DNA of 64,000 bases from contig WJKK01000001.1 of assembly GCA_014729135.1 (NCBI GenBank), positions 325,462 through 389,461 on the forward strand, in the 5' to 3' direction. The notes beneath the pieces were generated by a model, which ran no database searches, was not told the DNA's origin, and saw only the letters and a list, made by a program, of their open reading frames with translations. Below, piece after piece: positions 4,439-37,496 of this stretch; within the stretch, counting starts at the first letter, position 1; each line of letters starts with the position of its first letter. Source of the stretch: a candidate division WWE3 bacterium. GTDB taxonomy: Bacteria; Patescibacteriota; WWE3; UBA101185; UBA10185. Both the position numbers and the translations under genes were made by a program.

Positions 4439-4513
4439 CCTTTGGGATCAATTTCCAGAGGACTTGGAAGACCCGGAGTTTGCTGCAGAATAAAGGCAAA
4501 GAAAGTCAAAGTG

Positions 4514-4542: not shown

Positions 4543-4553
4543 AGCTATTGCTT

Positions 4554-4823
4554 ATGGCGTTACCAAAAGATTTAAAAGACAAAATAATTAACGATTATCA
4601 AGTGCACGAGGAAGATACAGGATCTCCTGAGGTTCAAATTGCCCTATTAACTGAAAGAATTTCCCAATTAGCCGACCACTTAAAGACTCACAAAAAGGAT
4701 AACCACTCTAGAAGAGGTCTATTGCAGCTTGTGGGGAAGAGACGTCGCCTTCTTTCCTATTTAAAAGGAAAAGACAAGGAACGTTACAAGACGGTTACTA
4801 AGAAATTAGGCCTTAAATCCTAA
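4554..4823 (+). CDS. rpsO: 30S ribosomal protein S15
   Basis: MALPKDLK...[13 protein letters not shown]...[19 protein letters not shown] is a canonical S15 sequence. The ORF-track start at 4548 is TTG; the ATG is at 4554. Confidence 0.95.
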
Positions 4824-5075
4824 TAAATTCAGCACTCCGTTTGCAATTTTCGTTGATTTATACTATAAAGTTAACAATTATTAATTATAAGTAAAGGAAG
4901 TTTAGTAGAGGATTTGGATTAAGGGTTAAATATTGGACATTATTCTCATTTAGGATTTTCCCGTTAGATAGAAACTTATCTAGAAGAAGGAATTTAAGTG
5001 AGTTTTAATAGTGTGACAAATATTTTATTCCTTAATCTATTCTTAAAACACTTCCCATAGAAGAAAGGTAAAAAA

Positions 5076-7199: not shown

Positions 7200-7233
7200 C
7201 ATAACATAGAGATTTGGTAGAATTAACTTGATA

Positions 7234-8334: not shown

Positions 8335-8379
8335 CTTACTTTTTTAAGGTTTCCTTTTGGAGTTTTAGAGTTTAAAGAT

Positions 8380-9033
8380 ATGAAAAAGATTGAAGTAATG
8401 GAAAAAATAACCGCAAAAGTTGAGAAGTGTGAGAAGTGTCGTTTATGTAAAGAGGCTAAAAACGCTGTTCCGGGTGAGGGGGACATTAACGCGGATATTG
8501 TTTTTATTGGAGAGGCTCCGGGGGCTAATGAGGATAAGACGGGGCGCCCTTTTGTAGGTCGGGCCGGACAACTCCTGGAATCTTTGCTTGGGGAAATAGG
8601 TTTAAGTCGCGAGGAAGTTTGGATAGGCAACATAATTAAGCATCGCCCTCCAAAAAATCGTGATCCTAAACCGGATGAAATAGCAGCTTGTGAGCCTTAC
8701 TTAACGGTTCAGCTAAGAACAATTCGGCCGAAATTGATTGTAACTTTGGGAAGATTTGCGATGTATTACTTTCATAAGGGAGGCAAAATTTCGCGAGATC
8801 GTGGTAACCTTATAAAAGTTGACTCAAAAAAGGTAGGCAGTGTTTTAAACGTTTATCCCGTTTATCACCCTGCTGCCGGTTTAAGAAATGGTCGTTTTAG
8901 GGAGGCTCTGGAGGAGGACTTCATGAGAATCCCCCAAATTTTGAAAGAAATTGAATTAGAACAAGTACAAAATAAGAACTCTTCCACTTATAGAGAGGAA
9001 GAGCAGAAAGGACAAATAAAATTGGATTTATAG
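8380..9033 (+). CDS. Uracil-DNA glycosylase, family 4 (Fe-S type)
   Basis: CEKCRLC cysteine motif, GEAPGANEDKTGRPFVGRAGQLL and the HPAA motif. Confidence 0.8.
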   Translation: MKKIEVMEKITAKVEKCEKCRLCKEAKNAVPGEGDINADIVFIGEAPGANEDKTGRPFVGRAGQLLESLLGEIGLSREEVWIGNIIKHRPPKNRDPKPDEIAACEPYLTVQLRTIRPKLIVTLGRFAMYYFHKGGKISRDRGNLIKVDSKKVGSVLNVYPVYHPAAGLRNGRFREALEEDFMRIPQILKEIELEQVQNKNSSTYREEEQKGQIKLDL

Positions 9034-9035: not shown

Positions 9036-10709
9036 ATGTTAAAAATAATTAATTTAGGAGGAACAGAAGACGTTACCGGCAACTTAACTGCCTTTGAATA
9101 TGGTGACGATATTATATTAGTAGATTGTGGAATAGGTTTTCCCGATAGCGAGACTTTAGGGGTGGATTTGGTCATACCTGACTTTGATTATCTGCGTGAA
9201 AATGCACATAAGATAAAAGGGTTGTTGTTAACTCATGGACACGAGGACCATATTGGGGCGGTGCCTTACTTTTTAGCGGAGTTTCCTAATGTGCCGGTTT
9301 TTTCGGATAAGTTGGCGTTAGGCTTCTTGCGTGAAAAGTTTGAGGAGAAACGACGTTATCCGGGATTGCCCAATAATCCTTCGTTAGGTTTGATAACTCC
9401 TGAGACGGAGCCTTTGAGTTTAGGTGTTTTCACTATAGAGGCTTTTAGAGTAAGTCACTCTGTGCCTGATTCGTTAGGTTACGCCATAAGAACACCTGAG
9501 GGAACGATTTTACACGTTTCTGACTTTAAAGTAGATTTGCATCCTGTTTTGGATGATCCTATTGATTTAAACAGAATAGCTGCTTATGGTAATGAAGGCG
9601 TTTTATGCTTGCTTTCGGATTGTTTAGGCGTAACTGCTTCAGGGTATTCTCAGCCGGAGGTAGAACTAAGCAAGACTTTTGATCTTTTATTTGAGGAGGC
9701 TGCCGGAAAGCAAATAATTGTAACTACAATTTCGTCAAATGTTTCGCGAATTTATCAGATAATTAGTAGTGCGCAGCGGTTAGGTCGAAAGGTGGTTCTT
9801 CTTGGTTATTCAATTAGCCGGAGTACTGAAGTAGCGCGTGGTTTGGGGTATATTCCCTTTGAAGATGACGTTTTTGTGAATCCGCGGAAGGCTTCTGGTT
9901 ACAACCAAGCGGATCTTGTGTATATTGCTGCCGGTTGTTATGGTCAGCCTCGTTCCGCTTTAGGTCGCTTAAGCCGTGGGGAGCATCGCGACGTTAAACT
10001 TGAAGAAGGTGCTTATGTAATTTTTTCGGCGGATCCCAGCCCTCCAGGAACAATAGAGCCCGTTGAAAAGGTGCAGGATAATCTTACGTTGCGTGGAGCT
10101 AGAGTTTTATTTAGTGAAATTCAGGATAATCTTCATGTTTCAGGTCACGGTACCAGGGGAGATATTCAGTTGCTTGCTTATTTGTCAAAGGCAAAATATT
10201 ACATTCCTATTGGAGGCAGCATAAAGCGAATGCGTATTTATTCCGATATGATAGGTTCTTTAGGACGTCCCTCTGAAAATGTTTTTGAGCAGCGCGAAGG
10301 TGATACGGTAATTTTTGAGAAGGGCTCTGCGCGAAAAGGGGATCCTGTTGCGGTTAAGGACGTTTTCATTGACGGTTCTAACATAGGTGATGTTGGCCCC
10401 TTGGTTTTGCGTGATCGCGAAAAGCTCTCTGATGACGGTATTTTCGTGGTAATTGTTCCTATAGATCAGAAGACGCGGCAATTAGCAGGAGATGTAGAAG
10501 TTGTAACAAGAGGATTTGTTTACGTAAAGGAATCAGGCGAGTTACTAAATAAAACAAAACAATCCGTTACAGGCTTGCTTCAAAAGCACAAGGAAGGTCT
10601 TAAAGACTGGAATAACATCCGCGAAGAGATAGAAAAGCGCTTAGATAAGATGCTTTACAAGGAAACCGGTAGAGATCCCTTAATCTTTGTGCAAGCGATT
10701 TATCTCTAA
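9036..10709 (+). CDS. rnj: Ribonuclease J (metallo-beta-lactamase/beta-CASP RNase)
   Basis: HGHEDHIGAVPY metal-binding motif, beta-CASP region, length 557 aa. Confidence 0.9.
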   Translation: MLKIINLGGTEDVTGNLTAFEYGDDIILVDCGIGFPDSETLGVDLVIPDFDYLRENAHKIKGLLLTHGHEDHIGAVPYFLAEFPNVPVFSDKLALGFLREKFEEKRRYPGLPNNPSLGLITPETEPLSLGVFTIEAFRVSHSVPDSLGYAIRTPEGTILHVSDFKVDLHPVLDDPIDLNRIAAYGNEGVLCLLSDCLGVTASGYSQPEVELSKTFDLLFEEAAGKQIIVTTISSNVSRIYQIISSAQRLGRKVVLLGYSISRSTEVARGLGYIPFEDDVFVNPRKASGYNQADLVYIAAGCYGQPRSALGRLSRGEHRDVKLEEGAYVIFSADPSPPGTIEPVEKVQDNLTLRGARVLFSEIQDNLHVSGHGTRGDIQLLAYLSKAKYYIPIGGSIKRMRIYSDMIGSLGRPSENVFEQREGDTVIFEKGSARKGDPVAVKDVFIDGSNIGDVGPLVLRDREKLSDDGIFVVIVPIDQKTRQLAGDVEVVTRGFVYVKESGELLNKTKQSVTGLLQKHKEGLKDWNNIREEIEKRLDKMLYKETGRDPLIFVQAIYL

Positions 10710-10728
10710 TTTTGCTATCATTGCCCTA

Positions 10729-13023
10729 ATGGCCAAAAGAGGACGCAAGAAAAAATTCAAACTTAAAGTCGATTTTAATCTTCGGCCGGAAGTCGTGAAA
10801 TCCATTGCAGTTGTAGTTTTCTTCCTTCTGGGGGCTTTAAGTTTAATTTCTTTTGTTGCGCCTACTTATACGCTAAACAATAAAATTCGCAATTTGCTTT
10901 TGGGGAATTTTGGTTTGGCGGCTTATTTAATCCCTCTTGTTTTTATTTTAGTAGCAACATTTTTCATAGATGCACTGAAATTAAAAATTAAGGATGTGCG
11001 TGTGTTTTTAGGTCTTTTAGGTTTGCTTATTTTTGGATCCGGCTTTTTTTCGCTTTTTTGTTGGAGGTCTGATCCTTTTTCGAGAGCTTCCGCCGGTAAG
11101 TGTGGAGGCCTTTTGGGCTATCATCTGCTTTTCCTTTTAAATAAGACAGTAAGCATTTATGGTGCCGCCTTAATTTTAGTTTCGGCCGTGGTGATTTCTG
11201 TTTTGTTGCTTTTTAATCTTTCTTTAAACAAGCTTTTTGAGTGGTTACTGGAGTTATTGCAGAAAATGCGTTCTAAAAAGGATGCTGCCGAAGAGGCGGT
11301 TTCGGAGGATTCCTCTAAGGAGTCGGAGTCCGCTCTTGCAGGAACTATTAGTCAGTTGGCTCAAATGTCGCTGGGCTTAGGTTCCTCTGAAGAGCCTCCG
11401 GAAGAGTCTGCAGAAGCTCCCGCCGAGATAATAGAGCCGGAAGAACCCGAAGAGCCCGCAAAGATTGAAATTTTACCCTCTTATTCGGAGCCTCAGGACG
11501 AGGAAATAGTAATGCCCACTCCTTTGGAGGAAGACGACTCCGAAGTGACCTCGTTGGTGCCTAATCTTCCTTATAGCGACAGAGTTTGGCAGCTACCTCC
11601 GCTGAGTTTGCTTCAAGATCCTCCTGCTAGTAGACCGGATGCCGGAAATGTTAAGGCCAGGGCGGAGGTAATTGAGAACACGTTAAAGTCGTTTGGTATT
11701 GATGCAGAGGTTAAGGACATTAAGCCGGGACCTTCAGTAACTCAATACGCTTTGGATGCTGCTACAGGGACTAAGATTTCAAAGATTGTAAACTTGCAGT
11801 ACGATTTAGCTTTGGCGTTGGCTTCTCCTACGGGCTCTGTTCGTATTGAGGCGCCAATTCCGGGCAAGTCGCTTGTTGGTATTGAGGTGCCAAATAATAA
11901 TCGCGTAACAGTGCACTTTAAGTCACTTTTAACCTCAGAACCTATGAAAGGTCTGGATTCTAAACTGGGAATTGTTCTAGGTAAGGATGTTGGGGGACGC
12001 TCGTTAGTTTATGACATTGGAAAGATGCCTCACCTTTTGGTTGCAGGTGCTACGGGTTCAGGTAAATCTGTGTTTTTGCACTCGCTGCTTTTTTCCATGC
12101 TTTATCGAGCAACTCCGCAAGAGGTAAAGTTTGTTTTGGTGGATCCCAAGCGAGTTGAGTTCACTCACTACTCAGACATTCCGCATCTTTTAACCCCTGT
12201 TGTGACTGATATTGACAATTCTCCCTCCGTTTTTAAGTGGGCGGTTGTGGAAATGGAGCGTCGTTATAAACTTTTTGAAAAGGCACGTGCTAGAAATATT
12301 GACTCCTATAATGAAAAATCCGGTTTTCAAGCCCTTCCTTATATTGTGATTATTGTGGATGAGCTAGGCGAAATTATGGTGGCGGATCCTGCAGGTGTGG
12401 AAAAAAGCATTATTCGTTTGGCACAGCTTGCTCGTGCTACAGGTATTCATCTTGTGCTTTCGGTACAGCGCCCTTCTACCAATGTTATTACGGGATTAAT
12501 TAAGGCAAACATTCCTTGTCGTGTTGCGTTTAATGTTTCAAGTCAGGTGGATTCGCGAGTAATTATTGATCAGCCGGGAGCTGAAAAGCTGTTAGGTCAA
12601 GGTGACATGCTTTTTGTTCCGCCGGATGCTTCTAAACCGCAGCGACTCCAAGGTTCTCTAGTTACAGAGCAGGAGATTTCTTCATTGGTGGGTTACCTTA
12701 AATCCCAGGGAGTTGAGCCTAATTACAAGGAGGAGGTTTTTAAAGTCGAGCAAAAGATTGAGCAAAAGAATACAAGTATTGCAGCAGGAGGCGAGGCAAA
12801 GGATGAGCTTTTTGATGATGCTATTGATGTTTGTTTGCAGGCAGGGCGTGGGTCAGCTTCGCTTTTGCAGAGGCGCCTCTCCGTAGGATATGCTCGTGCT
12901 GCCCGCATTCTGGATGAACTTGAAGCTGCCGGAATAGTAGGTCCAAAAAACGGTAGTCAGCCTCGTGACCTTCTAATTGATAGCCATCCGAATCGTGACG
13001 ATTCAGATGATCTACCCTTTTGA
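10729..13023 (+). CDS. ftsK: DNA translocase FtsK/SpoIIIE
   Basis: N-terminal TM helices, acidic linker, Walker A GATGSGKSV, and a C-terminal gamma winged-helix (LLQRRLSVGYARAARILDELE). An alternative TTG start at 10687 overlaps rnj. Confidence 0.9.
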   Translation: MAKRGRKKKFKLKVDFNLRPEVVKSIAVVVFFLLGALSLISFVAPTYTLNNKIRNLLLGNFGLAAYLIPLVFILVATFFIDALKLKIKDVRVFLGLLGLLIFGSGFFSLFCWRSDPFSRASAGKCGGLLGYHLLFLLNKTVSIYGAALILVSAVVISVLLLFNLSLNKLFEWLLELLQKMRSKKDAAEEAVSEDSSKESESALAGTISQLAQMSLGLGSSEEPPEESAEAPAEIIEPEEPEEPAKIEILPSYSEPQDEEIVMPTPLEEDDSEVTSLVPNLPYSDRVWQLPPLSLLQDPPASRPDAGNVKARAEVIENTLKSFGIDAEVKDIKPGPSVTQYALDAATGTKISKIVNLQYDLALALASPTGSVRIEAPIPGKSLVGIEVPNNNRVTVHFKSLLTSEPMKGLDSKLGIVLGKDVGGRSLVYDIGKMPHLLVAGATGSGKSVFLHSLLFSMLYRATPQEVKFVLVDPKRVEFTHYSDIPHLLTPVVTDIDNSPSVFKWAVVEMERRYKLFEKARARNIDSYNEKSGFQALPYIVIIVDELGEIMVADPAGVEKSIIRLAQLARATGIHLVLSVQRPSTNVITGLIKANIPCRVAFNVSSQVDSRVIIDQPGAEKLLGQGDMLFVPPDASKPQRLQGSLVTEQEISSLVGYLKSQGVEPNYKEEVFKVEQKIEQKNTSIAAGGEAKDELFDDAIDVCLQAGRGSASLLQRRLSVGYARAARILDELEAAGIVGPKNGSQPRDLLIDSHPNRDDSDDLPF

Positions 13024-13038: not shown

Positions 13039-13746
13039 ATGAAAAATTTAGGCGAGATTTTAAAATCTCAACGAAAAAAGCGAAAGCTCACGTATAATCA
13101 AGTTTACGCTAAAATAAAAATTCATCCCAATTATATAAAGGCGCTTGAGGAAAATGATTATGCAGTTTTTGATAGTGGCGTTCATGCCAAAGGTTTTTTG
13201 AAGATTTATGCGGAGCTTTTAAATTTAAATGTTTCGCAGATTTTGGCTCTTTGGCGTAGGGAGCATAGTTTTACTTTTGAGCACGAACTGGAAAAAACTA
13301 AGGAGCAAACAGTTTTTGAGGAAATAAAGCAGGGTTTTACGCTTACTACTAATAAAGTTTTGGCTCTTATAGGAATAGTTTTGTTGGTCGCATTTTTTGG
13401 TTATCTTTTTTATTCTTATAAAAATTATTCAGGCCCTCCGGATCTTAAGATAGACACTCCGGAAAATAATAAAATAGTTGGCAATTCTTTGGTTGATATT
13501 ACGGGTAAGACGGATATTGACTCTGTGCTTTTTATTAATGGAGAAAGGGTTTTTTTAAAACCGGATGGATCGTTTGCTACTTCGTTGCATTTAAAGGAAG
13601 GGGTAAACACTCTTAGCATAACGTCAATTAATAAGCTTGATAAAAAGACGGAGGAGGTTTTGACGGTAATTTATCGCCCCACAGAGGATTCGGTTTTGGA
13701 ATCTACTGAAAGCACTTCTCCTGTTTCTCCGGAAGACCTCCCTTAA
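13039..13746 (+). CDS. RodZ-like cytoskeletal protein: HTH, then a TM helix, then a C-terminal domain
   Basis: N-terminal XRE-like HTH LGEILKSQRKKRKLTYNQVYAKIKIHPNYIKALEENDY resembles RodZ, followed by a single TM helix. Confidence 0.5.
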   Translation: MKNLGEILKSQRKKRKLTYNQVYAKIKIHPNYIKALEENDYAVFDSGVHAKGFLKIYAELLNLNVSQILALWRREHSFTFEHELEKTKEQTVFEEIKQGFTLTTNKVLALIGIVLLVAFFGYLFYSYKNYSGPPDLKIDTPENNKIVGNSLVDITGKTDIDSVLFINGERVFLKPDGSFATSLHLKEGVNTLSITSINKLDKKTEEVLTVIYRPTEDSVLESTESTSPVSPEDLP

Positions 13747-13798: not shown

Positions 13799-14083
13799 AT
13801 GACTAACGAAACATTAACAACCATACTCATAGTTTTGCTAAGTATCAATTTTGTTCTTTGGATTGCCTTTTTGATCTTTGTGCTAGTGCAAATTCGAAGA
13901 ATTTTCAAAGTCATCTTTGGGATTTTGGACGACATAGAGGACTTTTCATCTTCCATAATAGGATCTGCCTTTAAAGTAGCTCCTTTGGTACTGGGCTTTC
14001 TTAAAAGTTTTCAAGCTGTTAAATCTATTACAACTTTAAAAGACTCCGGTGATTCGGAGGATAGAAATAAAAAGGAGGATTAA
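13799..14083 (+). CDS. Small hypothetical membrane protein
   Basis: Hydrophobic N-terminal half, no recognisable domain. Confidence 0.4.
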   Translation: MTNETLTTILIVLLSINFVLWIAFLIFVLVQIRRIFKVIFGILDDIEDFSSSIIGSAFKVAPLVLGFLKSFQAVKSITTLKDSGDSEDRNKKED

Positions 14084-14086
14084 CAT

Positions 14087-14357
14087 GACTAAAAAAGACA
14101 AAAAAAATAAATTTTGGTTAGGTGCTTTAGCAGGAGCCGTTTTAGGTGTTTTATTTGCTCCCCGCAAGGGAAAGGAGACGCGCGAAAAGCTTTCCGAGGA
14201 TCTTGAGGGAGTGAAGGATAAGCTTGACGATGTTTCTGATAAAGCTGCAAAGAAAGCCGAAGAGGTCAAAGAGAAGGCTGAGCCTTATGTGGAGTCGCTT
14301 AAAAAGGGACTTAAGGGTGAGAAAGAAGCGTCTGATAAAGATAATAAGGAAGCCTAA
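14087..14357 (+). CDS. YtxH-like membrane-anchored protein
   Basis: Strong RBS aaaaggagg before ATG 14087. Hydrophobic helix WLGALAGAVLGVLFAPRKGKETREKL, then a K/E-rich helical tail typical of the YtxH family. Confidence 0.5.
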
Positions 14358-14375
14358 AATTCTAAAAATTAAACA

Positions 14376-14798
14376 ATGGTTGATGTAAAAAATCAGGATC
14401 CGGTTGTCGATTCTGCCGGTGATAAACAGGATGATTCTATTGCTGACTCTTCAACTCCTTCTAAGGGACGTACTTCCGGTCCGCAACCCACTGCTCCTGA
14501 AGGACTAGCATTTCAAGAAAAAAAAGCAGCACCTGAAAAGGAAAAAGGTGTAGAAAAAATAACCGACTTAAAAGTACCCACCCCCAAAGCTTTACAAGAA
14601 GATGACGATGAAGAGGTTATTGACTTCAAAAAAGAAGATCCCGGTGACTCTGTGGGGCGTGTTGTGGACATGCGCTCAAAAACAACAAAAACCAAGCCCA
14701 TTGAAGACCCCCGCCATGAGCTTACCGAATACGGCGATGAAAAAGAAGCTGATTTTATAGAAAAAGTTAAAGCTGCCCATGAATCTAGCGAATCTTAA
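14376..14798 (+). CDS. Acidic low-complexity hypothetical protein, 140 aa
   Basis: ORF only. Its 3' end overlaps the start of the next gene by 20 nt. Confidence 0.4.
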   Translation: MVDVKNQDPVVDSAGDKQDDSIADSSTPSKGRTSGPQPTAPEGLAFQEKKAAPEKEKGVEKITDLKVPTPKALQEDDDEEVIDFKKEDPGDSVGRVVDMRSKTTKTKPIEDPRHELTEYGDEKEADFIEKVKAAHESSES

Positions 14799-17190
14799 TC
14801 ACAGTCTTTATGTAGCTTTTTGGCTAACTGTTTACCTTTTAATTTTGGCGGCTGTCCTTGTGGGTGCTTTTACGGTCTTTTTGCGAAAACGACGTAAAAA
14901 GCACGAGGATTTAAGTAAGTTTGATCTCACTTTTTTAATGGTTAAGCTTCCTTCTGAAAATGAAATTGAAGTGGAGGCAGCGGAACAGTTTTTTGCCAGT
15001 TTGTGGGGTTTTAAGCGTACTTGGTGGGATGCTTTGTGGAAAGGGCAGTATCTGATTTCTTTTGAAATTGTTGCTAAGGCTTCCGGGATTGGTTTTTATG
15101 TAGTAGTTCCTGATGAGTTGGCCTTAGCTGTTGAGAAAAAGATCAATGGAGCCTACCCTGAAGCTGAAATTGACATTATTGATCCTAATGAAGTGTGGGA
15201 TAGAGGTGATTTTACTGCTGTTGCTGAACTAAAGCTTTCCGGAGCACCGTACTATCCTATTCGAACCTTTGAGGATTTAGCTTCCGACGCCTTAAGTTCT
15301 CTGACCTCTTCAATGAGCAAGCTTTCTGACGAAGATGTAGTAGCTTTGCAGTACGTTGTAAAGCCGGCAAGTAACTCCTGGAGGAGACAAGGTAATGCTT
15401 TTGTTGCCGGTGTTAGAAAGAAAAGCGCCGACCCGGAAAAAGGCGGGGGAGTAGATACTTCTTTTGTTGAAGGCGTAGAAAAAAAGGTGTCCAAGCCCGG
15501 ATTTGATGTAACCATCCGAATCGTCTCTATTGCAGAAGATGACTTATTGGCTCAAGATCACATTCAGAATATTGTCACTTCCTTTGATCAGTTTACAGAC
15601 GTTAAATATAACAACTTCAAGCGAATTAATCCTAGAGCGCATAGAACCATAGATAATTTTATTTTTCGAACTATGCGCGTTATTGACTGGAGTATCCCGA
15701 TTTTTGATGTTCCGCTTTATCGCAACGTTTCCGTTTTAAACACAGAGGAGATGGCTACTATTTTTCACTTTCCCAATAATGAGGTTAAGACTCCGGGAAT
15801 TAAATGGCTTAAGGCACGCAAAGCTCCTGCTCCTGAGGATGTTCCAAATGAGGGCCTTTATTTAGGGAAAAATTCTTATCGAGGTGTTGAGCGCAACATT
15901 TATATGAAAGATAAAGATCGCACACGCCACTTTTACATCATAGGTCAGACAGGTACAGGTAAGTCCGAATTTATGAAAACGTTAGCTTTGCAGGACATTG
16001 AAAATGGAGAGGGTTTAGCTTTTATTGACCCGCATGGAAGTGATATTGACGACATTTTAGAAAAGATTCCGGAGCATCGCGCAAATGATGTGATTTTGTT
16101 TGATGTTTCCGATATAGAGCGCCCCCTGGGAATGAACATCTTGGAGGCTCATTCGGAGGAAGAAAAACACATGGTTATTAACTCTTTTATTGCGCTTTTG
16201 TATAAGCTTTATGACCCTAATCGTCAGGGAATTATGGGTCCTCAGTTGGAGCGTGCTATTCGTAACGTTATGTTAACAGCTATGACGGATCCTAATAGTA
16301 CAATGGTTGATGTTTTGCGTCTTTTAATTGATGAGGATTATGCTAAGCAGTTTATTCCTAAGTTGGAAGATCCTATGGTGAAAAGGTTTTGGACGGATGA
16401 GATGGCCAAGACCAGTGATTATCATAAGAGTGAAAAGATGGGCTACTTTGTTTCCAAGTTTGACCGTTTTGTAACGGATCGAACTATGCGAAATATTCTA
16501 GGTCAGCCTAAATCTGCCATTAATTTTCCAAAAATTATGCGTGAGAAAAAGATTTTGCTGGTTGACTTGTCTAAGGGAAAAATAGGTGAGGAGAATTCCA
16601 ATTTCTTAGGTTTAATCTTGGTTCCGCGAATTTTGCAGGCTGCTTTAGGGCGTGCTACTAAGCTTGGTAAAGAGGAGTTTCCTAACTTTTTCTTATACGT
16701 AGATGAGTTTCAAAACTTTGCCACTCCGGATTTTGCCACAATTTTATCTGAGGCGCGTAAGTATAAGCTTAATTTAGTGGTGGCGCATCAGTTTGTTTCG
16801 CAGTTAACGGATGAGATTAAGGAGGCAATTTTTGGAAACGTTGGTACTATGGCTGTTTTTAGAGTAGGCGCTGATGATGCTGAATTTTTAGAGAGTCAGT
16901 TTGAACCTACTTTTACGCAAAGTGACCTAATTAATCTTCCGGTGGGTAATTACTATACTAAGTTGCTGGCTGATGGCCATCCCACGTCGCCGTTTTCTAT
17001 GAAAGTGGATTGGTCTATGGTTAATGAGGCAAATGCTCAAAAAGACAGCAAGCAAGCGCAGGAAATTAGGGAGCGCTCTCGTATGAACTATGGCGTGGCT
17101 CGCACGGAGATAGAGGAGTATATAGATAAGCGTTCAGGTTTGGATGCGCCTAAACCTGAACCCAAGCCTAAGAAGCGAATTCCTTTTTAG
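14779..17190 (+). CDS. Membrane-anchored FtsK-HerA superfamily ATPase, TrwB/VirD4 (type IV coupling protein)-like
   Basis: N-terminal TM helix. Walker A HFYIIGQTGTGKS, followed by AFIDPHGSDIDD and VILFDVSDIERPLGMNILEA, is collinear with the TrwB/TraD NBD. Walker B FFLYVDEFQNF. VVAHQFVSQL resembles the T4CP C-terminal Q motif. Confidence 0.6.
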   Translation: MNLANLNHSLYVAFWLTVYLLILAAVLVGAFTVFLRKRRKKHEDLSKFDLTFLMVKLPSENEIEVEAAEQFFASLWGFKRTWWDALWKGQYLISFEIVAKASGIGFYVVVPDELALAVEKKINGAYPEAEIDIIDPNEVWDRGDFTAVAELKLSGAPYYPIRTFEDLASDALSSLTSSMSKLSDEDVVALQYVVKPASNSWRRQGNAFVAGVRKKSADPEKGGGVDTSFVEGVEKKVSKPGFDVTIRIVSIAEDDLLAQDHIQNIVTSFDQFTDVKYNNFKRINPRAHRTIDNFIFRTMRVIDWSIPIFDVPLYRNVSVLNTEEMATIFHFPNNEVKTPGIKWLKARKAPAPEDVPNEGLYLGKNSYRGVERNIYMKDKDRTRHFYIIGQTGTGKSEFMKTLALQDIENGEGLAFIDPHGSDIDDILEKIPEHRANDVILFDVSDIERPLGMNILEAHSEEEKHMVINSFIALLYKLYDPNRQGIMGPQLERAIRNVMLTAMTDPNSTMVDVLRLLIDEDYAKQFIPKLEDPMVKRFWTDEMAKTSDYHKSEKMGYFVSKFDRFVTDRTMRNILGQPKSAINFPKIMREKKILLVDLSKGKIGEENSNFLGLILVPRILQAALGRATKLGKEEFPNFFLYVDEFQNFATPDFATILSEARKYKLNLVVAHQFVSQLTDEIKEAIFGNVGTMAVFRVGADDAEFLESQFEPTFTQSDLINLPVGNYYTKLLADGHPTSPFSMKVDWSMVNEANAQKDSKQAQEIRERSRMNYGVARTEIEEYIDKRSGLDAPKPEPKPKKRIPF

Positions 17191-17229
17191 TTTGTGGTTA
17201 TTTAGGAGGGGTTAAGTTATTATTTTTGT

Positions 17230-19698
17230 ATGGCAATAAGACGAGCTCAGGCAGAAACAGAACCGGATGGTGATGAGGTTATGACTATAGCTGCAGACGC
17301 TGAGAATGGTCCCGGAACAGACGAGGTCCCAGATTCTGTTGAAGCAGGTGAAACACAGGATTCCCCCGAAAGACATGAGTCAAGTTTAAATTTTGAACGA
17401 CGTGTTATTCCTGATGCTTGGAATGAAACAGCGGAGGCTTTGCGCGCATTGGATGCTCTGGTTGAAGATGTTGATTATGCGGAGGCTATAGAGGCGTTAG
17501 GCGATGCTATAGAAGCACAAGGCATTCGTGCTCAAGATGTATTTGCTTCAGAGACTATGCAGCGCACTTTGGGTGAAAACACTCAACAAGTTCTTTTGGA
17601 ATATCGGCAACAATTTAGGGAGGTTTTAACAGTTGTAAATTCTCTTTCACGTGAGTTAGCGGAAGATGTTGGAGAAGAGGCTCCCGAGGAGGAACAGGTT
17701 GCTCGCGCGGAACGTATTTTAGAGGTTGCACGTTATTTGGGATCGCCCGAAGATGTCCCAGATGCTGAAGTTTTCGATCAAGATAGAGAAATACCCATGC
17801 TAGAAGGTCTTCGAGAAGATTTGTACACCGATCCCGTGGAATTTGCTTCTCAATTTTCGGATTATGCAGAGGAACGTGCTCCCCTTGAAGATATCTCAAG
17901 TCGTCTACATTCACAGCGTAGACAAAGAGTGGAAAAAGTAAATGATCTTGTCCGCGAGTTTGCAGAATATGACGTAGAAGACTTTGTTGATCGCTCCGTT
18001 CCCATTGAAGCTGAAGAGTTTGCTGCAGAAATTGTTGCGGAAGAAACTCCTGAGACTGCCGAAACCGCTCCCAAAACAAAGGAACAGTATAAGGCAGAAT
18101 TCTTAGCCGAAAATGATTTTGATACATGGGATGCTCAAATGGAAGCAGAAGGGGGTTGGGTTATTAATACACAGGGTTATACCCAGGAAGGGGCAAAACA
18201 GGTTGTGGAGGAAAAGGGCTTTTTTAGGAAGCGGACTCGGCAAGTTAGGGCACCTCAGGTTCTTTTTGAGCAGAAAGAAAAAGTAACAATTCCCGCCGAG
18301 TTTACTGATGGAGATGTTGTAAGGACTGTCGAAGTTCCCATTATGTGCGCTACATTTGCGGAGTTGCGTCGAAGAGGTGAGGATATGGGTCTGCTTCCAG
18401 GTGAGTCTTCTCGTTTGGAAGGATATTACCAGCAACCTATTTATACTATGGATACGACGGCTAATTCTGTGGTAAAAGCACAGGAGCTTTTGTGGCGTCT
18501 GGAGGCGGGCGCTGATCCGGATGAAAATGGCCTTCACCGTGTTCCTATAAAAAGAGCAGGTAAGGCATCTTATTTGCCACTGACTTCTGTGGAGTACGCT
18601 CGCTGGAAGCAGGGTCTTCAAAAAACTGTGAATGCCTTTGAGGCTCAGGGTTTAACTTATGAACGTGTGAAAAGATTGCATGAGCGGTTAGCGGAAGAGC
18701 ATGGGGAGCCTCTTTTGGATGAGCCGGGAGTGCGTGATTTGGAGAGCGATTCGTCGCGTGCTTGGTACGCTGCTCATTTGCAGTTTGCTGTTTTGGGAGA
18801 GGGTCTGGATAAAATGGAGGATCTTGCGGGAGAAGCCGATTTATCTGCTGAAGAGGACGAGGCTTTGCGTCATGTAGTTGAAACTTTGCGTTTTGATTAC
18901 AGCGAGTTCTTAGCTGCCTATGGTCGTCGCAGTGAGTATGTGCGTGTGGCTTATGAAAATTTAACTCGAAGAGGTTTAGATTTAAGTCCTGAGAATGTGG
19001 AAAATGAGATTTTGCGAGTAGCAGCCGAATATGAAGCTAAAAAATCCTTATTACGTCGTTTGGGATCTCGTGTTTTAGGTGTTTTGGAGGAGGGAGAGTT
19101 TGATCCCGGGGAGGTACTTGATGATTTGCAAGCTCTTTTGGAGGAGTATGAGGATAATTTAGAGGCTCATGTTGAAGTTTTAGAGGATAATGCTACTTTT
19201 ACTACGGAGCATACCCGTATGGCTTTTACAGCCAATTTGCCTGGTCATGGTAATGTTTTAATTCCTGCGGCTGTTTGGGAAGTTCGGGATTTAGAAGATC
19301 TTAATGCCGCAGATTATCCGGAGGCTTATGCTTTTTATGAAAAGTACCGAGAAAATCCGGATCAGAGTGTTCCTGATTTTATGAAGGCTTTTAGGGAGAA
19401 TACCGAGACTTGGGCTGATATGGAGCGCAAGATTCGGGAAGCAGAGGAAGAAGGTGCCAGTGAAGGTGTAGACACTATTGCACCGGAAGAGCCTGTTGTG
19501 GAAGATTCTCTTGTGGAATTTTTAGAGAAAGATGCCCAAGAGATTAACTCTCTTGGCGAGCTTATAACCCAGGCAGCAACACACCTTGAACAAACTCCTG
19601 CACCCGAAGAAGGTGCTACACAAGAACAGCTCGCCGAATGGTGGAACGACACCCAAGGGGAAACAGAATTTGACGATTGGCTAGCCCAACAAAGTTAG
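17230..19698 (+). CDS. Large hyperacidic hypothetical protein, 822 aa, no TM helix
   Basis: ORF only. Strong D/E excess and visibly higher GC than flanking genes. Confidence 0.5.
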   Translation: MAIRRAQAETEPDGDEVMTIAADAENGPGTDEVPDSVEAGETQDSPERHESSLNFERRVIPDAWNETAEALRALDALVEDVDYAEAIEALGDAIEAQGIRAQDVFASETMQRTLGENTQQVLLEYRQQFREVLTVVNSLSRELAEDVGEEAPEEEQVARAERILEVARYLGSPEDVPDAEVFDQDREIPMLEGLREDLYTDPVEFASQFSDYAEERAPLEDISSRLHSQRRQRVEKVNDLVREFAEYDVEDFVDRSVPIEAEEFAAEIVAEETPETAETAPKTKEQYKAEFLAENDFDTWDAQMEAEGGWVINTQGYTQEGAKQVVEEKGFFRKRTRQVRAPQVLFEQKEKVTIPAEFTDGDVVRTVEVPIMCATFAELRRRGEDMGLLPGESSRLEGYYQQPIYTMDTTANSVVKAQELLWRLEAGADPDENGLHRVPIKRAGKASYLPLTSVEYARWKQGLQKTVNAFEAQGLTYERVKRLHERLAEEHGEPLLDEPGVRDLESDSSRAWYAAHLQFAVLGEGLDKMEDLAGEADLSAEEDEALRHVVETLRFDYSEFLAAYGRRSEYVRVAYENLTRRGLDLSPENVENEILRVAAEYEAKKSLLRRLGSRVLGVLEEGEFDPGEVLDDLQALLEEYEDNLEAHVEVLEDNATFTTEHTRMAFTANLPGHGNVLIPAAVWEVRDLEDLNAADYPEAYAFYEKYRENPDQSVPDFMKAFRENTETWADMERKIREAEEEGASEGVDTIAPEEPVVEDSLVEFLEKDAQEINSLGELITQAATHLEQTPAPEEGATQEQLAEWWNDTQGETEFDDWLAQQS

Positions 19699-19732
19699 CA
19701 AAACCACCCATCCTTTTGTATAATCAACCTAA

Positions 19733-20962
19733 ATGATTAAGCTGCCTTTCCTCAACCTCAGAAAAAACAAAAATCAATCCGAAAACTTTTTGGCAATATA
19801 TCCCGAACCCTTCAAAGTACAGGTGGCTTATTTTGAAGCTGCTAACCCTCCCACGGATGAAGTTCCGCAGGCTCAACTAATTAGCGCTGTCTCAAAGTTT
19901 ATGCCGGAAGATTCCCTATTTCATGCAGGCGATCACTTTAATCAAACTCTGGAAACTACAGAAGCTATTCTGGATGAAATGGCGCAGGAGTATCCCGATT
20001 TACCCACGCAAGTGATATTTGGTCTATCTTCTGATCATTGTATAGATCTAATGTCAATTGCCCGCTTGGAGAATCAAACAAAAAAGCGATTTACGCAGGA
20101 GCAGGTAGAAGAACTAGCTACTCAAGCGCAAAAGAACGCTTCGTTTAGGGCACAGGACATATTGGCAACTCAAAAAGGCGATACGGATACAGACTTGGAG
20201 CTTATAACTTCCGTGGATATTTTTAAAAAGATAGATGGCGCTGTTACGCGGGATCCCATTGGCTTAGAAGGCAAAGAGTTGGAATTTTCGTGGTTTGGTT
20301 CTTTTGCGGAGGCTCCCTATCTTAGGTACCTTCAGAATCTTGCAAAAAAACTGGGCTTAGACATATTGACCGTTTCTTCCCTATCTTATTCCTTTTACAG
20401 CAGCCTACAGGAGCTGGACTCTAATTATCGAAATTGCGTGGTCATCAACTTGGGAACTTCCTTAACGGAGGTGTCTGTGGCTTTTGGGGGAGGCTTAGTA
20501 GGCTCCCGCTTTATTAACATGGGCTTAATTTCTATTTTGAAGCAGATTTCAGCCAAGCTGGAACTGCATTATGAAGAGACTGAACGGGTTTTAGAAAAAT
20601 ATCGCGAAGGTACGCTGGATTCTTCTATCGCAGTAGAAGTTCAAAAAATAGTTCGTCGTTTTTTTGTGGTTTGGTCGCAAGCTTTAAACATGGTTTTCTC
20701 GGATTTTACGGGAATCAAAACTTTCTCTTCACGCGTCCTCTTGGTAGGGCCGGGTTTTGACATTCCCGATTTGGTTGAGCTAACTTCCGTTGAGCCCTGG
20801 TTTAAGTCGATCCCTTTTAAAGCCCCTCCCGAATTTGAAAAAGCCTTAGCCTCGGGTAAACTAACAGAGGTTACGGATATCTCAGGAAAGTCCTCTAAGC
20901 TTTCATGGACGCTTCCCTTGTCGCTTGCTCATGTTTATTTTAAGTTGGAAGAGGACGCTTAG
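19733..20962 (+). CDS. Actin-fold FtsA/PilM-like protein with a degenerate phosphate-1 motif
   Basis: LGLDILTVSSLSYSFYSS...NCVVINLGTSLTEVSVAFGGGLVGSRFINMGL...RVLLVGPGFDIP is collinear with the FtsA C-terminal subdomains. The N-terminal GxDxG loop is replaced by AIYPEPFKVQVAYFEA. Confidence 0.5.
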   Translation: MIKLPFLNLRKNKNQSENFLAIYPEPFKVQVAYFEAANPPTDEVPQAQLISAVSKFMPEDSLFHAGDHFNQTLETTEAILDEMAQEYPDLPTQVIFGLSSDHCIDLMSIARLENQTKKRFTQEQVEELATQAQKNASFRAQDILATQKGDTDTDLELITSVDIFKKIDGAVTRDPIGLEGKELEFSWFGSFAEAPYLRYLQNLAKKLGLDILTVSSLSYSFYSSLQELDSNYRNCVVINLGTSLTEVSVAFGGGLVGSRFINMGLISILKQISAKLELHYEETERVLEKYREGTLDSSIAVEVQKIVRRFFVVWSQALNMVFSDFTGIKTFSSRVLLVGPGFDIPDLVELTSVEPWFKSIPFKAPPEFEKALASGKLTEVTDISGKSSKLSWTLPLSLAHVYFKLEEDA

Positions 20963-20974
20963 TTTTTTACGGGA

Positions 20975-22555
20975 ATGATTTACGAAGTTGCAAAAAATAA
21001 AGACATATATACGCTCCTTTCTGAGTTAGCTACTCGAGGCGAAAGGGATTTGGAGGTTTTTATTCCGGAAGGTGCCTTAATTTTACAAAACAAATTGAAT
21101 TTGCAGTTTTTGTCGGATAGTTTAGAGAAGTTAGGTAAGTCTGTAACCTTTGAGACGGATGATCCAAGGGGGGTAGAGCTTTTGTCTAACATTACAACAG
21201 CGGGTGCAACTGATTATGGAGAGGCTTATGCTTCTTCCGGAGAAGATCAGACTTCTCCATTTTCTCAAGGCATTTTTGCAAAAATTCAGGGAGCACTTCC
21301 TTCTGTTAAGGCTCCTAAAATGCCAAAAATATCGCTCCCCTTATCTCGTTCAGAAGGCAATTCAGGTTTTCGTTTTAAACTAAATTTCATCTTTTTAGGA
21401 ATTGCTGCAGCTGTAATAATTGTTTTAACTTATGGAGTCTATCGCTATGTGTCTTCGCAAAAGGCTTATATAAAAATTGTTACTAAATCTGAGCCCATGG
21501 CGCGAAGTCTGACAATTAGAGTGGATTCTCAGCAGGCCACAAACATAGAGAATAAGATTTTGGAAGGCCGGGACATTTCTACAAGTTTGTTTGAAACGGC
21601 GGAAATTGAAACAACAGGGGAAAAGGTGGTGGGCGAATATGCAGAGGGTGAGATTACGCTTTTTAATGGTACTGAGGAGGAAATTGAGCTTGATGAGGGT
21701 ACTTTGGTTGAGTATAAGGAGGATGATGAGGATTTGGCCTTTGAGTTACAGGATGATGTTACGATTCCGGGCTTTACCTATGAAGTAGCTGAGGATCCAA
21801 CAAGTGACCGCATTTTAGGGGAGGCTTCTGTTTTAGTTAAAGCGGTGAACTATGGTGAGGATTACAACATTTCTGAAGGTGAAATCTTAGAGTTTGACGA
21901 CTACAAAAAGTCTGAACTGGTAGCTAAGTCAAAGGAAGATTTTAAGGGAGGCAGCAGTGAGACAGTTGCTATTGTTTCCGAAGAGGATGTGACCAATTTA
22001 AAAACGGAGGTGGCTAAGGTTTTGGAGGAGAAGGCTGATTCTGCTTTAAAGGATGCAGTTCCCGAAGATTACAAAATGATAGATGGTTCCATGACTTCAG
22101 TTTTGGGTGACTTTGAAATTGATCAAGAAGTAGGTGATGAGGCTGAAAAGATTTCAATTAAGCAGTCGGCTACAGTAACAGGGCTTGCTTATGCCGAGAA
22201 AAAACTGGATCAGTTGATTATGCAGATTGTCGGGGAGTATGTTCCCGATGAGTACGCCCTTTCCGGAACTAAGCACACTTTAAATGTAGAGGTTCTTGGT
22301 GAAACGGAAGATACGGTCTTGAGTGCTACAACGGCAGATTTGCAGGTGACGGTTAAGACTTCGGTGGTTCCTGATATAGATGTTTCAGCTTTAAAGGAGG
22401 AGCTTCAAGGCAAATCTTTGGATGAAGTTCAGCGCCATTTAGGAAGCATGCGCAGTGTGTCTACATATGAATTTAGTTTATCCCCTCCGGTTCCCTTTAA
22501 GACCAATGTTCCCTCTGATACAAATCGCATATTAGTGGAAATTGAGTCGGAGTAG
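20975..22555 (+). CDS. Bitopic membrane protein: 130-aa cytoplasmic N-domain, one TM helix, acidic C-terminal domain
   Basis: Single TM helix FIFLGIAAAVIIVLTYGVY at about residues 130-150. No recognisable domain. Confidence 0.45.
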   Translation: MIYEVAKNKDIYTLLSELATRGERDLEVFIPEGALILQNKLNLQFLSDSLEKLGKSVTFETDDPRGVELLSNITTAGATDYGEAYASSGEDQTSPFSQGIFAKIQGALPSVKAPKMPKISLPLSRSEGNSGFRFKLNFIFLGIAAAVIIVLTYGVYRYVSSQKAYIKIVTKSEPMARSLTIRVDSQQATNIENKILEGRDISTSLFETAEIETTGEKVVGEYAEGEITLFNGTEEEIELDEGTLVEYKEDDEDLAFELQDDVTIPGFTYEVAEDPTSDRILGEASVLVKAVNYGEDYNISEGEILEFDDYKKSELVAKSKEDFKGGSSETVAIVSEEDVTNLKTEVAKVLEEKADSALKDAVPEDYKMIDGSMTSVLGDFEIDQEVGDEAEKISIKQSATVTGLAYAEKKLDQLIMQIVGEYVPDEYALSGTKHTLNVEVLGETEDTVLSATTADLQVTVKTSVVPDIDVSALKEELQGKSLDEVQRHLGSMRSVSTYEFSLSPPVPFKTNVPSDTNRILVEIESE

Positions 22556-22561: not shown

Positions 22562-22990
22562 ATGGCGGTATCTTCTACATCTTCAGCCCCCGGTATTTTA
22601 GGTATAGATTATGGGGAAACTAATATTGGTTTAGCCTTTGGGAGGGGCGGTATGGTTACTCCTTTGAGGGTTGTTTCGGGGAAAAATGACAATACGGCTG
22701 TTTCTGCAATTGGAAGAGTAGCAAAGGAATATAAAGTTGCCCGTTTTGTTGTGGGTTTGCCCCTGACAGTTGAGGGAAAGGAAACTCCGCAATCTTTGAA
22801 GGTGCGCAAGTTTGTTAAGGTTTTAAAGTCTCAGTTGAAGTTGCCGGTGGACTTGGTTAGTGAACATTCCACTTCTAAGGGTGCTGTTAAGGTTATGTTA
22901 AACGCAGGAGTTTCGCAAAAGCGTCGTCGAACTAAGGATCACTATTCAGCTGCTATTATTTTACGAAGGTATTTTAGAAATCGTACTTAG
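22562..22990 (+). CDS. ruvX: YqgF/RuvX-family putative Holliday junction resolvase / pre-16S rRNA nuclease
   Basis: ILGIDYGETNIGLAF N-terminus, and a C-terminal DHYSAAIILRRYF motif typical of YqgF. Confidence 0.8.
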   Translation: MAVSSTSSAPGILGIDYGETNIGLAFGRGGMVTPLRVVSGKNDNTAVSAIGRVAKEYKVARFVVGLPLTVEGKETPQSLKVRKFVKVLKSQLKLPVDLVSEHSTSKGAVKVMLNAGVSQKRRRTKDHYSAAIILRRYFRNRT

Positions 22991-24651: not shown

Positions 24652-25458
24652 TTAATTATAGAATAACATGAGTTTTACTATAGTGCCCGTAATTTTCGGG
24701 ACTTTTCTTTTCACCATTCTCTTTTTTGACACTATGGCAAGTCCTGCGCCGGAGTGAATTACCAGATTTCCCGAAAAGTTATTTAGGGTCCATTTTTGAA
24801 TAAGTTTTAATCCGTTGCCGCGTGTCTCTCCTACTCTTCCCGAGATGCCTTGCAATCCTTTTTCTATTGCTGCCAGATCATCCTTAATCTTAGGAAACAC
24901 GCTGCTTAATGATTTTTTAAATCCTACACCAAAGTCCATGACAACGATCTCTAGCATCTTTTGCTTTGGATCATTTTTTCCAAATATAATGCATCCAATG
25001 TTTCCTGTTGGCCACATCCCCAAATTATGATCGAAAACATTGTTTCCCAACTCCCCTAATAACGCGGTTATTCTACTGGCATCATCTTTTTTAATTCCCC
25101 AATTCTGATAAATTTGGTAAAAGTTGCCTAGTCGAGCGTTAAATACGTCGCTAGTGGGGCAGTGTGATACTTTTTGAAAATTTCTATCTTTTTCTTGGCT
25201 GTATCTTGAGGCAAATTCACACCGTATAAGCTTGTCAATCTCTAATGATGTAATCAATTTGGAAGTTGATTTTCCCTCAGGCACAACTAAACTTTTTGGT
25301 GTTTTTCTCTCATCTAGAAGTATGTGTAGAAGCAACGTTACTTTCCAGACGTTCGGAGTTTTTACGTTTAATGTTATTTTGTTTTGCCGTTGTAGAGTTT
25401 CAAAATCAGTGTACGCATTTAATATATCTTTACACATTGTTACAATTATTGCACACAA
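24652..25458 (-). CDS. GHKL-superfamily (HATPase_c) ATP-binding protein, RsbW/SpoIIAB-like serine-kinase fold with an N-terminal extension
   Basis: N box LGELGNNVFDHN, G1 box VVMDFGVGF and a G2-like GRVGETRGNGLK. The likely ATG start is at 25437; the ORF-track start at 25458 is TTG. Confidence 0.6.
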   Translation of the reverse strand: MCAIIVTMCKDILNAYTDFETLQRQNKITLNVKTPNVWKVTLLLHILLDERKTPKSLVVPEGKSTSKLITSLEIDKLIRCEFASRYSQEKDRNFQKVSHCPTSDVFNARLGNFYQIYQNWGIKKDDASRITALLGELGNNVFDHNLGMWPTGNIGCIIFGKNDPKQKMLEIVVMDFGVGFKKSLSSVFPKIKDDLAAIEKGLQGISGRVGETRGNGLKLIQKWTLNNFSGNLVIHSGAGLAIVSKKRMVKRKVPKITGTIVKLMLFYN

Positions 25459-37489: not shown

Positions 37490-37496
37490 TGATTCA

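Follow-up and report, generated by a model that had tools for sequence, protein, structure and literature searches.

Patescibacteria, the bacteria of the candidate phyla radiation (CPR), are tiny and mostly host-dependent, and a type IV secretion system (T4SS) is essential for epibiotic growth in the one member that has been studied genetically. Here we analyse a 64-kb stretch of a candidate division WWE3 genome (Patescibacteria/CPR), referred to as the window, in which a block of seven genes, named g1 to g7 in block order, contains an 803-aa membrane-anchored ATPase, g4, of the type IV coupling protein (T4CP)/VirB4 branch. Among 3,035 Patescibacteria genomes VirB4 has been reported in 2,417, and 5,713 VirD4-type T4CP homologues in 2,918 (about 96%), 148 of these homologues being near virB4 (Quinonero-Coronel et al. 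2025, PMC12102498). Since this amounts to some two homologues per genome, paralogues of more than one type are probably included in the published set. The t4cp homologue of Southlakia is non-essential, which led the authors to raise exaptation and to leave it open (PMC12102498). A related ATPase is known in the "DNA translocation operon" that the Bacillus phage 0305phi8-36 carries; the operon encodes a relaxase, the coupling ATPase, a VirB6-like and an MreB-like protein and can be dispensed with under laboratory conditions (Pathria et al. 2012, PMC3357382).

The g4 ATPase resembles the T4CP homologues of PMC12102498 in being chromosomal, of a near-universal kind, rarely beside virB4 and without a relaxase. 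It most likely belongs to these orphan VirD4-type homologues of Patescibacteria, an assignment made by homology and context. The proportion of loci with virB4 near the ATPase is likewise similar, namely 2 of 80 in our sample, in which virB4 was looked for within 10 kb and lies at 7-9 kb, and 148 of 5,713 in the published one (PMC12102498). A reading of the window made earlier from the sequence alone (the sequence-only reading) held that no described system has such a composition; this does not apply to the core ATPase, whose kind had already been published (PMC12102498). That study does not describe the N-terminal domain of g4 (DUF8128), its small upstream partner or the WWE3 neighbourhood, and WWE3 was not found in its supplements. 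Our literature search found no account of DUF8128, of CPR DUF87 ATPases or of a Patescibacteria VirD4 with FtsA.

Taken as a whole, the account that we favour, at slightly better than even confidence, is that g4 is a T4CP acting in trans and that the block around it is composite. The locus represents a clean example of a widespread unlinked coupling-type ATPase and no new class of machine. The comparison adds three points: the family has an N-domain of its own; a small partner is conserved and in some cases fused with the ATPase; and outside the phylum the closest relatives are found in T4SS-like operons of large Bacillus phages, together with a VirB4 resembling the patescibacterial one. According to the literature searched, three results, drawn from sequence and predicted structure, may be described here for the first time: the conserved small partner with its ATPase fusions, the resemblance of a phage G cluster to the patescibacterial T4SS, and a PilM/FtsA-like protein paired with a bitopic one that is Baseplate_J-like.

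Architecture and family placement of the g4 ATPase

The g4 protein is a one-helix membrane-tethered ATPase, in which a cytoplasmic DUF8128 domain of ~300 aa is followed by a RecA-like motor with an all-helical insertion as in TrwB and VirB4 (Table 1). By the positive-inside rule, the RKRRKK stretch behind the transmembrane (TM) segment would leave the remainder of the protein in the cytoplasm. Walker A (IIGQTGTGKS) lies at residues 387-396 and is followed by FIDPHGSDIDD (415-425), NILEA (453-457), Walker B (DEFQNF, 642-647) and AHQFVSQL (669-676). The single N-terminal TM segment and all the motifs quoted in the sequence-only reading were located in g4. The AlphaFold2 model (pLDDT 85.9, pTM 0.73) comprises a long N-terminal helix (residues 3-46), a two-part alpha/beta domain (~50-330), the RecA-like domain and the all-helical insertion (~460-590).

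The protein is 100% identical to a WWE3 protein at NCBI, whose precomputed Pfam annotation contains an N-terminal PF26449 (DUF8128), and in these annotations the domain stands N-terminal to the P-loop domain in g4 and its homologues alike. At E<=1e-3, DUF8128 was found in 1,588 representative clusters; among the 150 best listed of these hits it is positioned at the protein's N-terminal end, full-length members having ~780-1100 aa. A search of the PDB with the domain profile gave no solved relative by sequence.

In Pfam, g4 matches DUF87 (32.1 bits, above the cut-off) and TraG-D_C (28.5 against a cut-off of 22), reaches 19.9 against a cut-off of 20.5 for TrwB_AAD_bind and has no match to T4SS-DNA_transf. 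The top NCBIfam matches are coupling-protein models, SXT_TraD (1.3e-13) and the VirD4-like CD1115 (9.3e-11, residues 372-701), followed by VirB4 (1.8e-4); the scores against the TraD and VirD4 models are 30-50 bits for cut-offs of 250-650, which is far under equivalog level. By the same kind of models g4 is neither FtsK/SpoIIIE (PF01580, 14.9 against a cut-off of 24) nor VirB4 (TIGR00929, 19.9 against 643), and the CagE_TrbE_VirB N-domain was not found in it. Nor were an FtsK_SpoIIIE domain above cut-off together with a gamma domain, or a HerA-type N-terminal barrel together with a NurA or other effector partner, found for it.

The closest solved relatives by sequence, found with a profile of the g4 family, are DotL (7e-6) and TrwB (2e-4). 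Structure comparison of the AlphaFold2 model gave figures of 30.1 for the VirB4 C-terminal domain, 27.8 for the DptH/DndH C-domain, 26.6 for TrwB (360 residues aligned), 24.0 for HerA, 22.7 for DotL, 20.9 for Cag-beta, 17.5 for EccC, 16.9 for TcpA and 16.1 for FtsK. Structure by itself does not tell T4CP from VirB4 for the modelled g4. Both fold and sequence are closer to VirB4 and VirD4 than to FtsK, and the grouping with FtsK or HerA that the sequence-only reading had named as the outcome speaking against it was not found, DotL and TrwB being best by sequence and the figures for FtsK and HerA standing below those for VirB4 and TrwB.

With TrwB of R388, DotL of Legionella and Cag-beta, g4 shares the N-terminal anchor, the RecA-like nucleotide-binding domain with Walker A and B and the inserted all-alpha domain. 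It differs from them in the extra ~300-aa DUF8128 between anchor and motor, in the absence of relaxase or T4SS genes nearby and in T4CP equivalog scores far under the cut-offs; furthermore, canonical T4CPs usually have two TM helices, whereas g4 has one. From VirB4 it is set apart by its N-domain, which is not CagE_TrbE_VirB (compared with the Thermoanaerobacter pseudethanolicus C-terminal domain, 4ag5, and with TrwK); the alignment to TrwK spans only ~368 residues and the N-domains do not superpose. Besides the g4-type ATPase, CPR genomes possess a separate genuine VirB4. Thus the description of g4 as T4CP-like is borne out for the nucleotide-binding domain with its Walker motifs, the inserted all-alpha domain and the anchor, though not for an association with relaxase, virB4 or virB6.

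A further reading would have g4 serve in anti-phage defence, driving a system of the HerA, DptH/DndH or MADS mad8 type as its motor. The matches to such systems span the shared P-loop domain only, g3, g5, g6 and g7 have no PADLOC match, no nuclease, Sir2, methylase or Dnd partner is adjacent, and the ATPase occupies a fixed housekeeping position and not a variable island. We consider this explanation very improbable, and it was rejected on account of the P-loop-only matches and the missing partner genes.

The g3-g4 module and its relatives in Patescibacteria and phages

Distribution was studied in one genome per species, and neighbourhoods were taken from the best 80 loci, in which ORFs (open reading frames) were called, clustered and searched with the window proteins and with profiles. 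At least 596 ATPase loci were obtained, from WWE3, Levy-, Woese-, Gottesman-, Roizman-, Davies-, Curtiss-, Shapiro- and Dojkabacteria, the best 80 belonging to WWE3, many Microgenomatia lineages and Dojkabacteria. In WWE3, Microgenomatia and Dojkabacteria the gene for the g4 ATPase is chromosomal and conserved.

The best-supported functional core of the block is the two-gene module g3-g4 (14376-17190), a local copy of a phylum-wide module of ATPase and partner. In the window g3, whose product is small, acidic and disordered, is translationally coupled to g4. Most loci have a small disordered protein encoded on the same strand directly 5' of the ATPase. Outside WWE3 it combines a disordered N-terminus with a conserved C-terminal LPLT..Q...G....S.RWLAEWC.RRLK and is the sole recurrent same-strand neighbour of the ATPase. 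Two independent Patescibacteria genomes encode the partner fused to the ATPase, as the N-terminal ~170 residues of a 913-aa protein (locus L019) and the N-terminal ~120 residues of an 846-aa protein (L024). The fused module consists of a disordered region and a tryptophan-rich helix ("..RWLSSFVERHVKKL" and "RWLWVWWERQMKKL", respectively), and it replaces the TM helix directly before DUF8128. These fusions are direct evidence that partner and ATPase act together, and the position of the tryptophan-rich helix suggests a membrane-proximal element or anchor substitute.

The g3 protein is like the Microgenomatia partner in position and character, being small, acidic and joined to the ATPase gene by a start/stop overlap. 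Its counterparts in WWE3 have a C-terminal motif of their own in common, F/I..V.AAHG. The hidden Markov model (HMM) of the Microgenomatia partner family ("C2") does not match g3, so that its equivalence to that partner is one of position only.

Full-length homologues of g4 were found in Bacillus phages. Phage G gp156 matches residues 69-789 (tblastn, 7e-39), further matches being SPO1 gp27.4 and proteins of CP-51 and PBC5; PHROG 5156 was matched at 1.8e-91, and Foldseek against viral models gave 1.9e-46 for gp156, with TM-scores of 0.54-0.65. The coupling ATPases of these phages (0305phi8-36 orf201, SPO1 gp27.4 and phage G gp156) are homologous to g4 over the full length, including the N-domain. 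A small ORF overlaps the ATPase start in PBC5, and in SPO1 a small ORF stops 12 nt before the ATPase, whose gene lies there between the ALP-type actin gp27.9 (ALP_N, 2e-27) and the Replic_Relax nickase gp27.3.

In phage G (locus L088, NC_023719.1 84955-99219) the gene for gp156 belongs to a compact T4SS-like cluster with the Replic_Relax nickase gp146, the T4SS_pilin/VirB2-like gp150 (PF18895, 27.4 against a cut-off of 26.6), the TrbL/VirB6-like gp153 and the VirB4 gp155, which directly precedes the DUF8128 ATPase gp156. Among monoderm T4SSs, VirB2-like pilins have otherwise been described as found in Patescibacteria only (PMC12857230). The VirB4 of this phage is close to the CPR VirB4 of loci L038 and L046 (phmmer 7e-63, 29-41% identity), as against 5e-13 for the solved Thermoanaerobacter VirB4. 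Since gp155 is near CPR VirB4 and gp156 is homologous to g4, both ATPases of the phage cluster have Patescibacteria counterparts. A protein with a CarboxypepD_reg domain occurs near virB4 both in phage G (gp160) and in the CPR locus L038. A literature search on phage G VirB4 found nothing relevant.

The WWE3 block does not belong to the phage "DNA translocation operon". Its ATPase is homologous, whereas the Replic_Relax nickase, VirB4, VirB6/TrbL-like, pilin-like and ALP actin proteins of the phage operon have no homologue in the window; moreover, the phages can do without the operon in the laboratory while the CPR ATPase is a conserved chromosomal gene. The full-length phage homologues and the PHROG match could also be taken to mark the block as what remains of an integrated prophage or mobile element with a conjugation-type ATPase. 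No integrase, relaxase or flanking tRNA was found at the block, the sole tRNA of the window being at 37346, and the block has a GC content of 0.41-0.45, with both GC content and GC skew the same as in the rest of the window and no island. The block keeps its place in seven WWE3 genomes, the family occurs in at least 596 species genomes, and a scan of 2.9 million viral contigs for the g4-type ATPase returned one partial match only. A remnant of this kind is therefore extremely unlikely, and it was rejected in view of the flat composition, the missing integrase and tRNA flanks and the conserved position.

Under the favoured account of g4 as a coupling protein acting in trans, homology to TrwB, DotL and VirB4 suggests that it would form a ring at the inner membrane face and would spend ATP on recruiting a substrate, either protein or DNA, and feeding it onward. 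The recipient would most likely be the patescibacterial VirB4/VirB6/pilin T4SS encoded elsewhere. The small upstream protein may, again by homology, be an adaptor or a membrane-proximal partner of g4.

Composition of the WWE3 block

Seven WWE3 loci were available (the window, L001, L002, L004, L005, L083 and one JGI locus), with ATPase identities of 59-100%. All seven share the order g1-g2-g3-g4-(0-2 variable genes)-g6-g7-ruvX-HAD. Upstream neighbours vary, being ftsK-rodZ in the window, L001 and L083 and grpE-dnaK in other WWE3 genomes. Thus the insertion of the block between rodZ and ruvX proposed in the sequence-only reading holds for these three loci, and the gene-order conservation it asked about extends, in the loci compared, to WWE3 and no further: g6, g7, ruvX and the HAD gene accompany the ATPase in WWE3 loci only, and in a profile search ~75 non-WWE3 loci gave neither a g6 nor a g7 homologue at up to 10 kb from the ATPase.

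The slot between g4 and g6 is the variable part of the block. In the window it is filled by g5, an 822-aa protein whose hyperacidic character was confirmed (Table 1) and which has no match in Pfam, NCBIfam, PADLOC, PHROGs or the PDB. Across WWE3 the slot holds a fast-evolving acidic protein of 822, 720 or 882 aa, is empty in L002, L004 and L005, and in one locus contains two unrelated genes, one of them on the opposite strand. The identity of g5 falls to 33% in L083, where the ATPase retains 82%, and to 19% in L001, where the ATPase retains 66%. We conclude that g5 is a dispensable fast-evolving accessory gene.

The g6 protein has an actin fold of the PilM/FtsA type, as previously suggested; a profile of its family matches Myxococcus xanthus PilM (4.6e-9) and Staphylococcus aureus FtsA (1e-7) among PDB sequences. 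The scores remain under the curated cut-offs for FtsA (TIGR01174, 32.8 against 175.85; PF14450, 18.3 against 31.8) and for PilM (TIGR01175, 15.3 against 133), and neither FtsZ nor pilus genes were found among the window ORFs scanned. The adjoining g7 is the acidic bitopic protein that had been recognised from the sequence. It comprises a cytoplasmic alpha/beta domain (residues 1-76), a disordered linker, the TM helix and an acidic beta-rich ectodomain with a Baseplate_J/gp47-like domain, for which neither an above-cut-off score against Baseplate_J (PF04865) nor a tail or baseplate context was found. With the baseplate J/gp47 wedge proteins (Mu gp47, P1 BplA, diffocin, phiCD508) g7 has this one domain in common; in contrast to the contractile-tail baseplates, it is a cellular protein anchored in the membrane, and genes for a tail, a sheath or other baseplate parts do not occur near it.

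As in PilM-PilN of the type IV pilus and in FtsA-FtsN/FtsQ, a gene for a cytoplasmic actin-fold protein adjoins one for a bitopic membrane protein. The likeness is one of analogy, the g7 ectodomain being Baseplate_J-like and neither the ferredoxin-like fold of PilN/PilO nor a POTRA domain, and the window ORFs scanned lacking the ftsZ and pilus genes of those systems. By this analogy g6 may bind the cytoplasmic part of g7, and the two would most likely form a separate envelope-associated pair tied to ruvX.

Homologues of g7 are linked to ruvX within WWE3 and outside it. Distant homologues of 700-730 aa stand in non-WWE3 arrays of RNase J, FtsK, RodZ, small genes, AlaS, the g7-like protein, sortase and RuvX, with YceG and RpoB further on, and these arrays contain neither the ATPase nor an actin-fold gene. 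The Baseplate_J-like membrane protein thus sits inside a widely conserved array of envelope and housekeeping genes, and the occurrence of alaS-g7like-sortase-ruvX arrays without the ATPase indicates that the link between g7 and ruvX is older than the adjacency of ATPase and g6. Locus L089 has g6-g7-ruvX with an opposite-strand gene directly 5' of g6. Two of the distant homologues, from other CPR genomes (L084 8001-10121 and L085 8001-10184; 706-727 aa), show a faint Baseplate_J match.

In the g5-g6 gap lies the best sigma-70-like match of the block (19695-19724, TTAGCA-18-TATAAT, 10/12), 9 nt 5' of the start codon of g6. Taken as a whole, the scan for promoters and terminators showed no enrichment over shuffled sequence, and the match is a weak hint, compatible with a separate, nearly leaderless g6-g7 transcript.

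These data bear on the proposal of the sequence-only reading that the seven genes form one compact apparatus. In its fullest version the whole WWE3 block would be a single VirB4-independent translocation or surface machine, with g6 positioning the ATPase, g7 presenting a baseplate-like ectodomain at the surface and g5 serving as cargo or effector. The constancy of gene order in the seven WWE3 genomes despite changing upstream neighbours agrees with it, as does the presence of the homologous ATPase in an operon with an actin-like protein in SPO1 and 0305phi8-36 (PMC3357382); g5 is fast-evolving and patchy, as host-interaction proteins often are. Vertical descent alone, however, predicts a class-wide gene order in small streamlined genomes, and g6 and the phage ALP are related by fold alone, their hhalign comparison not being significant; nor did g6 or g7 give a significant match to SPO1 ALP gp27.9, phage G gp159 or phage G gp160. 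The g6 and g7 profiles match WWE3 loci only, g7 relatives occur with alaS, sortase and ruvX and without the ATPase, opposite-strand genes are found among the g4-g6 insertions and directly 5' of g6 in L089, and the strongest promoter-like match of the region is placed just 5' of g6, which is weak evidence. We consider a single machine unlikely. A narrower version, in which WWE3 has recruited the ATPase into a lineage-specific VirB4-free envelope machine, with g6 docking the ring to the cytoplasmic domain of g7, the g7 ectodomain contacting the host or the wall and g5 as cargo, appears to us more doubtful still.

The best-supported interpretation is that the block represents a WWE3-specific run of neighbouring genes and neither one apparatus nor a new seven-part machine. 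It follows from the restriction of the g6 and g7 profiles to WWE3 loci, from the g7 relatives in arrays without the ATPase and from the variable g5 slot, once occupied by an opposite-strand gene. Two observations limit confidence in the favoured account of a coupling protein in trans within a composite block: the adjacency of g4 and g6-g7 is class-wide in WWE3, which makes a local functional tie conceivable, and the non-essential t4cp homologue of Southlakia leaves room for exaptation (PMC12102498).

Such exaptation could have taken g4 from secretion to a chromosome or division role, with DNA handling at the septum or membrane together with the neighbouring division and segregation genes. The ATPase gene is conserved and chromosomal and not part of a mobile element, FtsK and RodZ are encoded upstream of it in the window, and exaptation was raised for the Southlakia protein (PMC12102498). 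In Microgenomatia (L006-L082) a XerC/D-type tyrosine recombinase, for the most part encoded on the opposite strand, lies just 3' of the ATPase in 35 of 80 loci and a DivIC/FtsB-like gene in 27 of 80. Its upstream neighbours there are NrdR, a class II ribonucleotide reductase and a PduO-type cobalamin adenosyltransferase, and in some loci a PBP2-type transpeptidase adjoins it. Since the neighbours differ between classes and are often on the opposite strand, they look like inherited housekeeping gene order. The window already contains a complete FtsK, that is, the canonical division DNA translocase of the genome; the fold and sequence of g4, as described above, are closer to VirB4 and VirD4 than to FtsK, and its nearest non-CPR homologues lie in T4SS-like operons. 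A division role is thus improbable, to about the same degree as a single machine. In a weaker version of the envelope-machine reading given above, DUF8128 ATPases across all Patescibacteria may, with their small tryptophan-rich partner, serve a secretion-independent housekeeping translocation of DNA or protein.

Genomic setting of the window

The seven genes are all on the plus strand with gaps of 1-39 nt apart from the g3/g4 overlap, in agreement with the sequence-only reading. The mechanical g2 ORF begins at GTG 14049 (14049-14357), the start given in Table 1 being most likely the true one, because an AAGGAGG site lies 6 nt 5' of ATG 14085 and this codon is 1 nt past the g1 stop. For g1 no family was matched in Pfam or NCBIfam; its homologues occupy the same slot in L083 (54% identity) and L002 (28%), and g2 is kept in L001, L005 and L083.

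Table 1. Position of the block genes, the parts of g4 and other features discussed (window coordinates, except for the phage G cluster).
Feature	Position	Strand	Remarks
FtsK, bona fide (context)	10687-13023	+	four predicted TM segments in translation
RodZ-like protein (context)	13039-13746	+	HTH_25 7e-16; one TM
g1, 94-aa small membrane protein	13799-14083	+	hydrophobic segment, residues 9-27
g2, YtxH-like small protein	14085-14357	+	Pfam YtxH 9.8e-19
g3, 140-aa acidic low-complexity protein	14376-14798	+	pI 4.6; stop overlaps g4 start by 20 nt
g4, 803-aa ATPase, T4CP/VirB4 branch	14779-17190	+	TM, DUF8128 and motor
g4 N-terminal membrane anchor, residues 16-34	14824-14880	+	one strong hydrophobic segment, then RKRRKK
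g4 DUF8128 N-domain, residues ~47-345	14917-15813	+	two-part alpha/beta
g4 RecA-like motor domain, residues ~360-745	15856-17013	+	
g4 inserted all-helical domain, residues ~460-590	16156-16548	+	within motor domain
g5, 822-aa hyperacidic protein	17230-19698	+	pI 4.28; net charge -111
g6, 409-aa actin-fold protein, PilM/FtsA-like	19733-20962	+	
g7, 526-aa bitopic membrane protein	20975-22555	+	pI 4.33; one TM, residues 138-156
ruvX (context)	22562-22990	+	RuvX 4.5e-31; 6 nt 3' of g7
Fic/DOC family protein	47-787	+	at window start
tRNA-Pro (GGG)	37346-37422		sole tRNA of window
Protein with homing-endonuclease-associated HNH repeat	37461-38204	+	adjoins the tRNA
NpmA-family methyltransferase, 213 aa	41068-41709	-	PF24675, 1.4e-59, above cut-off; adjoins truB
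Phage G T4SS-like cluster, ORFs (L088 locus coordinates)	105-929, 2017-2481, 2818-3777, 4240-5889, 5905-8382, 11221-12369		

The surroundings are housekeeping genes, as had been recognised, and include NusA, IF-2, PNPase, RNase J, FtsK, the RodZ-like protein, RuvX, the HAD hydrolase, MiaB, MiaA, MltG/YceG, MutL, RpoB/C-sized ORFs and others. Neither Pfam on almost every ORF of 200 aa or more nor tblastn with T4SS proteins from CPR and phages gave a VirB4, VirB6, pilin or relaxase in the 64 kb, which upholds the statement that no T4SS core gene is nearby. Homologues in the same slot as the window FtsK contain the FtsK_4TM, FtsK_alpha, FtsK_SpoIIIE and FtsK_gamma domains. The mechanical FtsK ORF starts with TTG at 10687 and shares 23 nt with the RNase J gene; its first ATG is residue 16 (MAKRGRKKK..., after 10687-10731), which may be the true start.

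Five further ORFs of the window have no Pfam match at E<=1e-4: 30705-32651 (648 aa), 39575-41014 (479 aa), 24652-25458 (268 aa) and 33982-34803 (273 aa) on the minus strand, and 46864-48408 (514 aa) on the plus strand. The NpmA match of the 213-aa protein is to a family of 16S rRNA (adenine1408-N1) methyltransferases that is known for aminoglycoside resistance. The Fic/DOC protein and the protein with the HNH repeat are possible small mobile or toxin-type elements amid the housekeeping genes.

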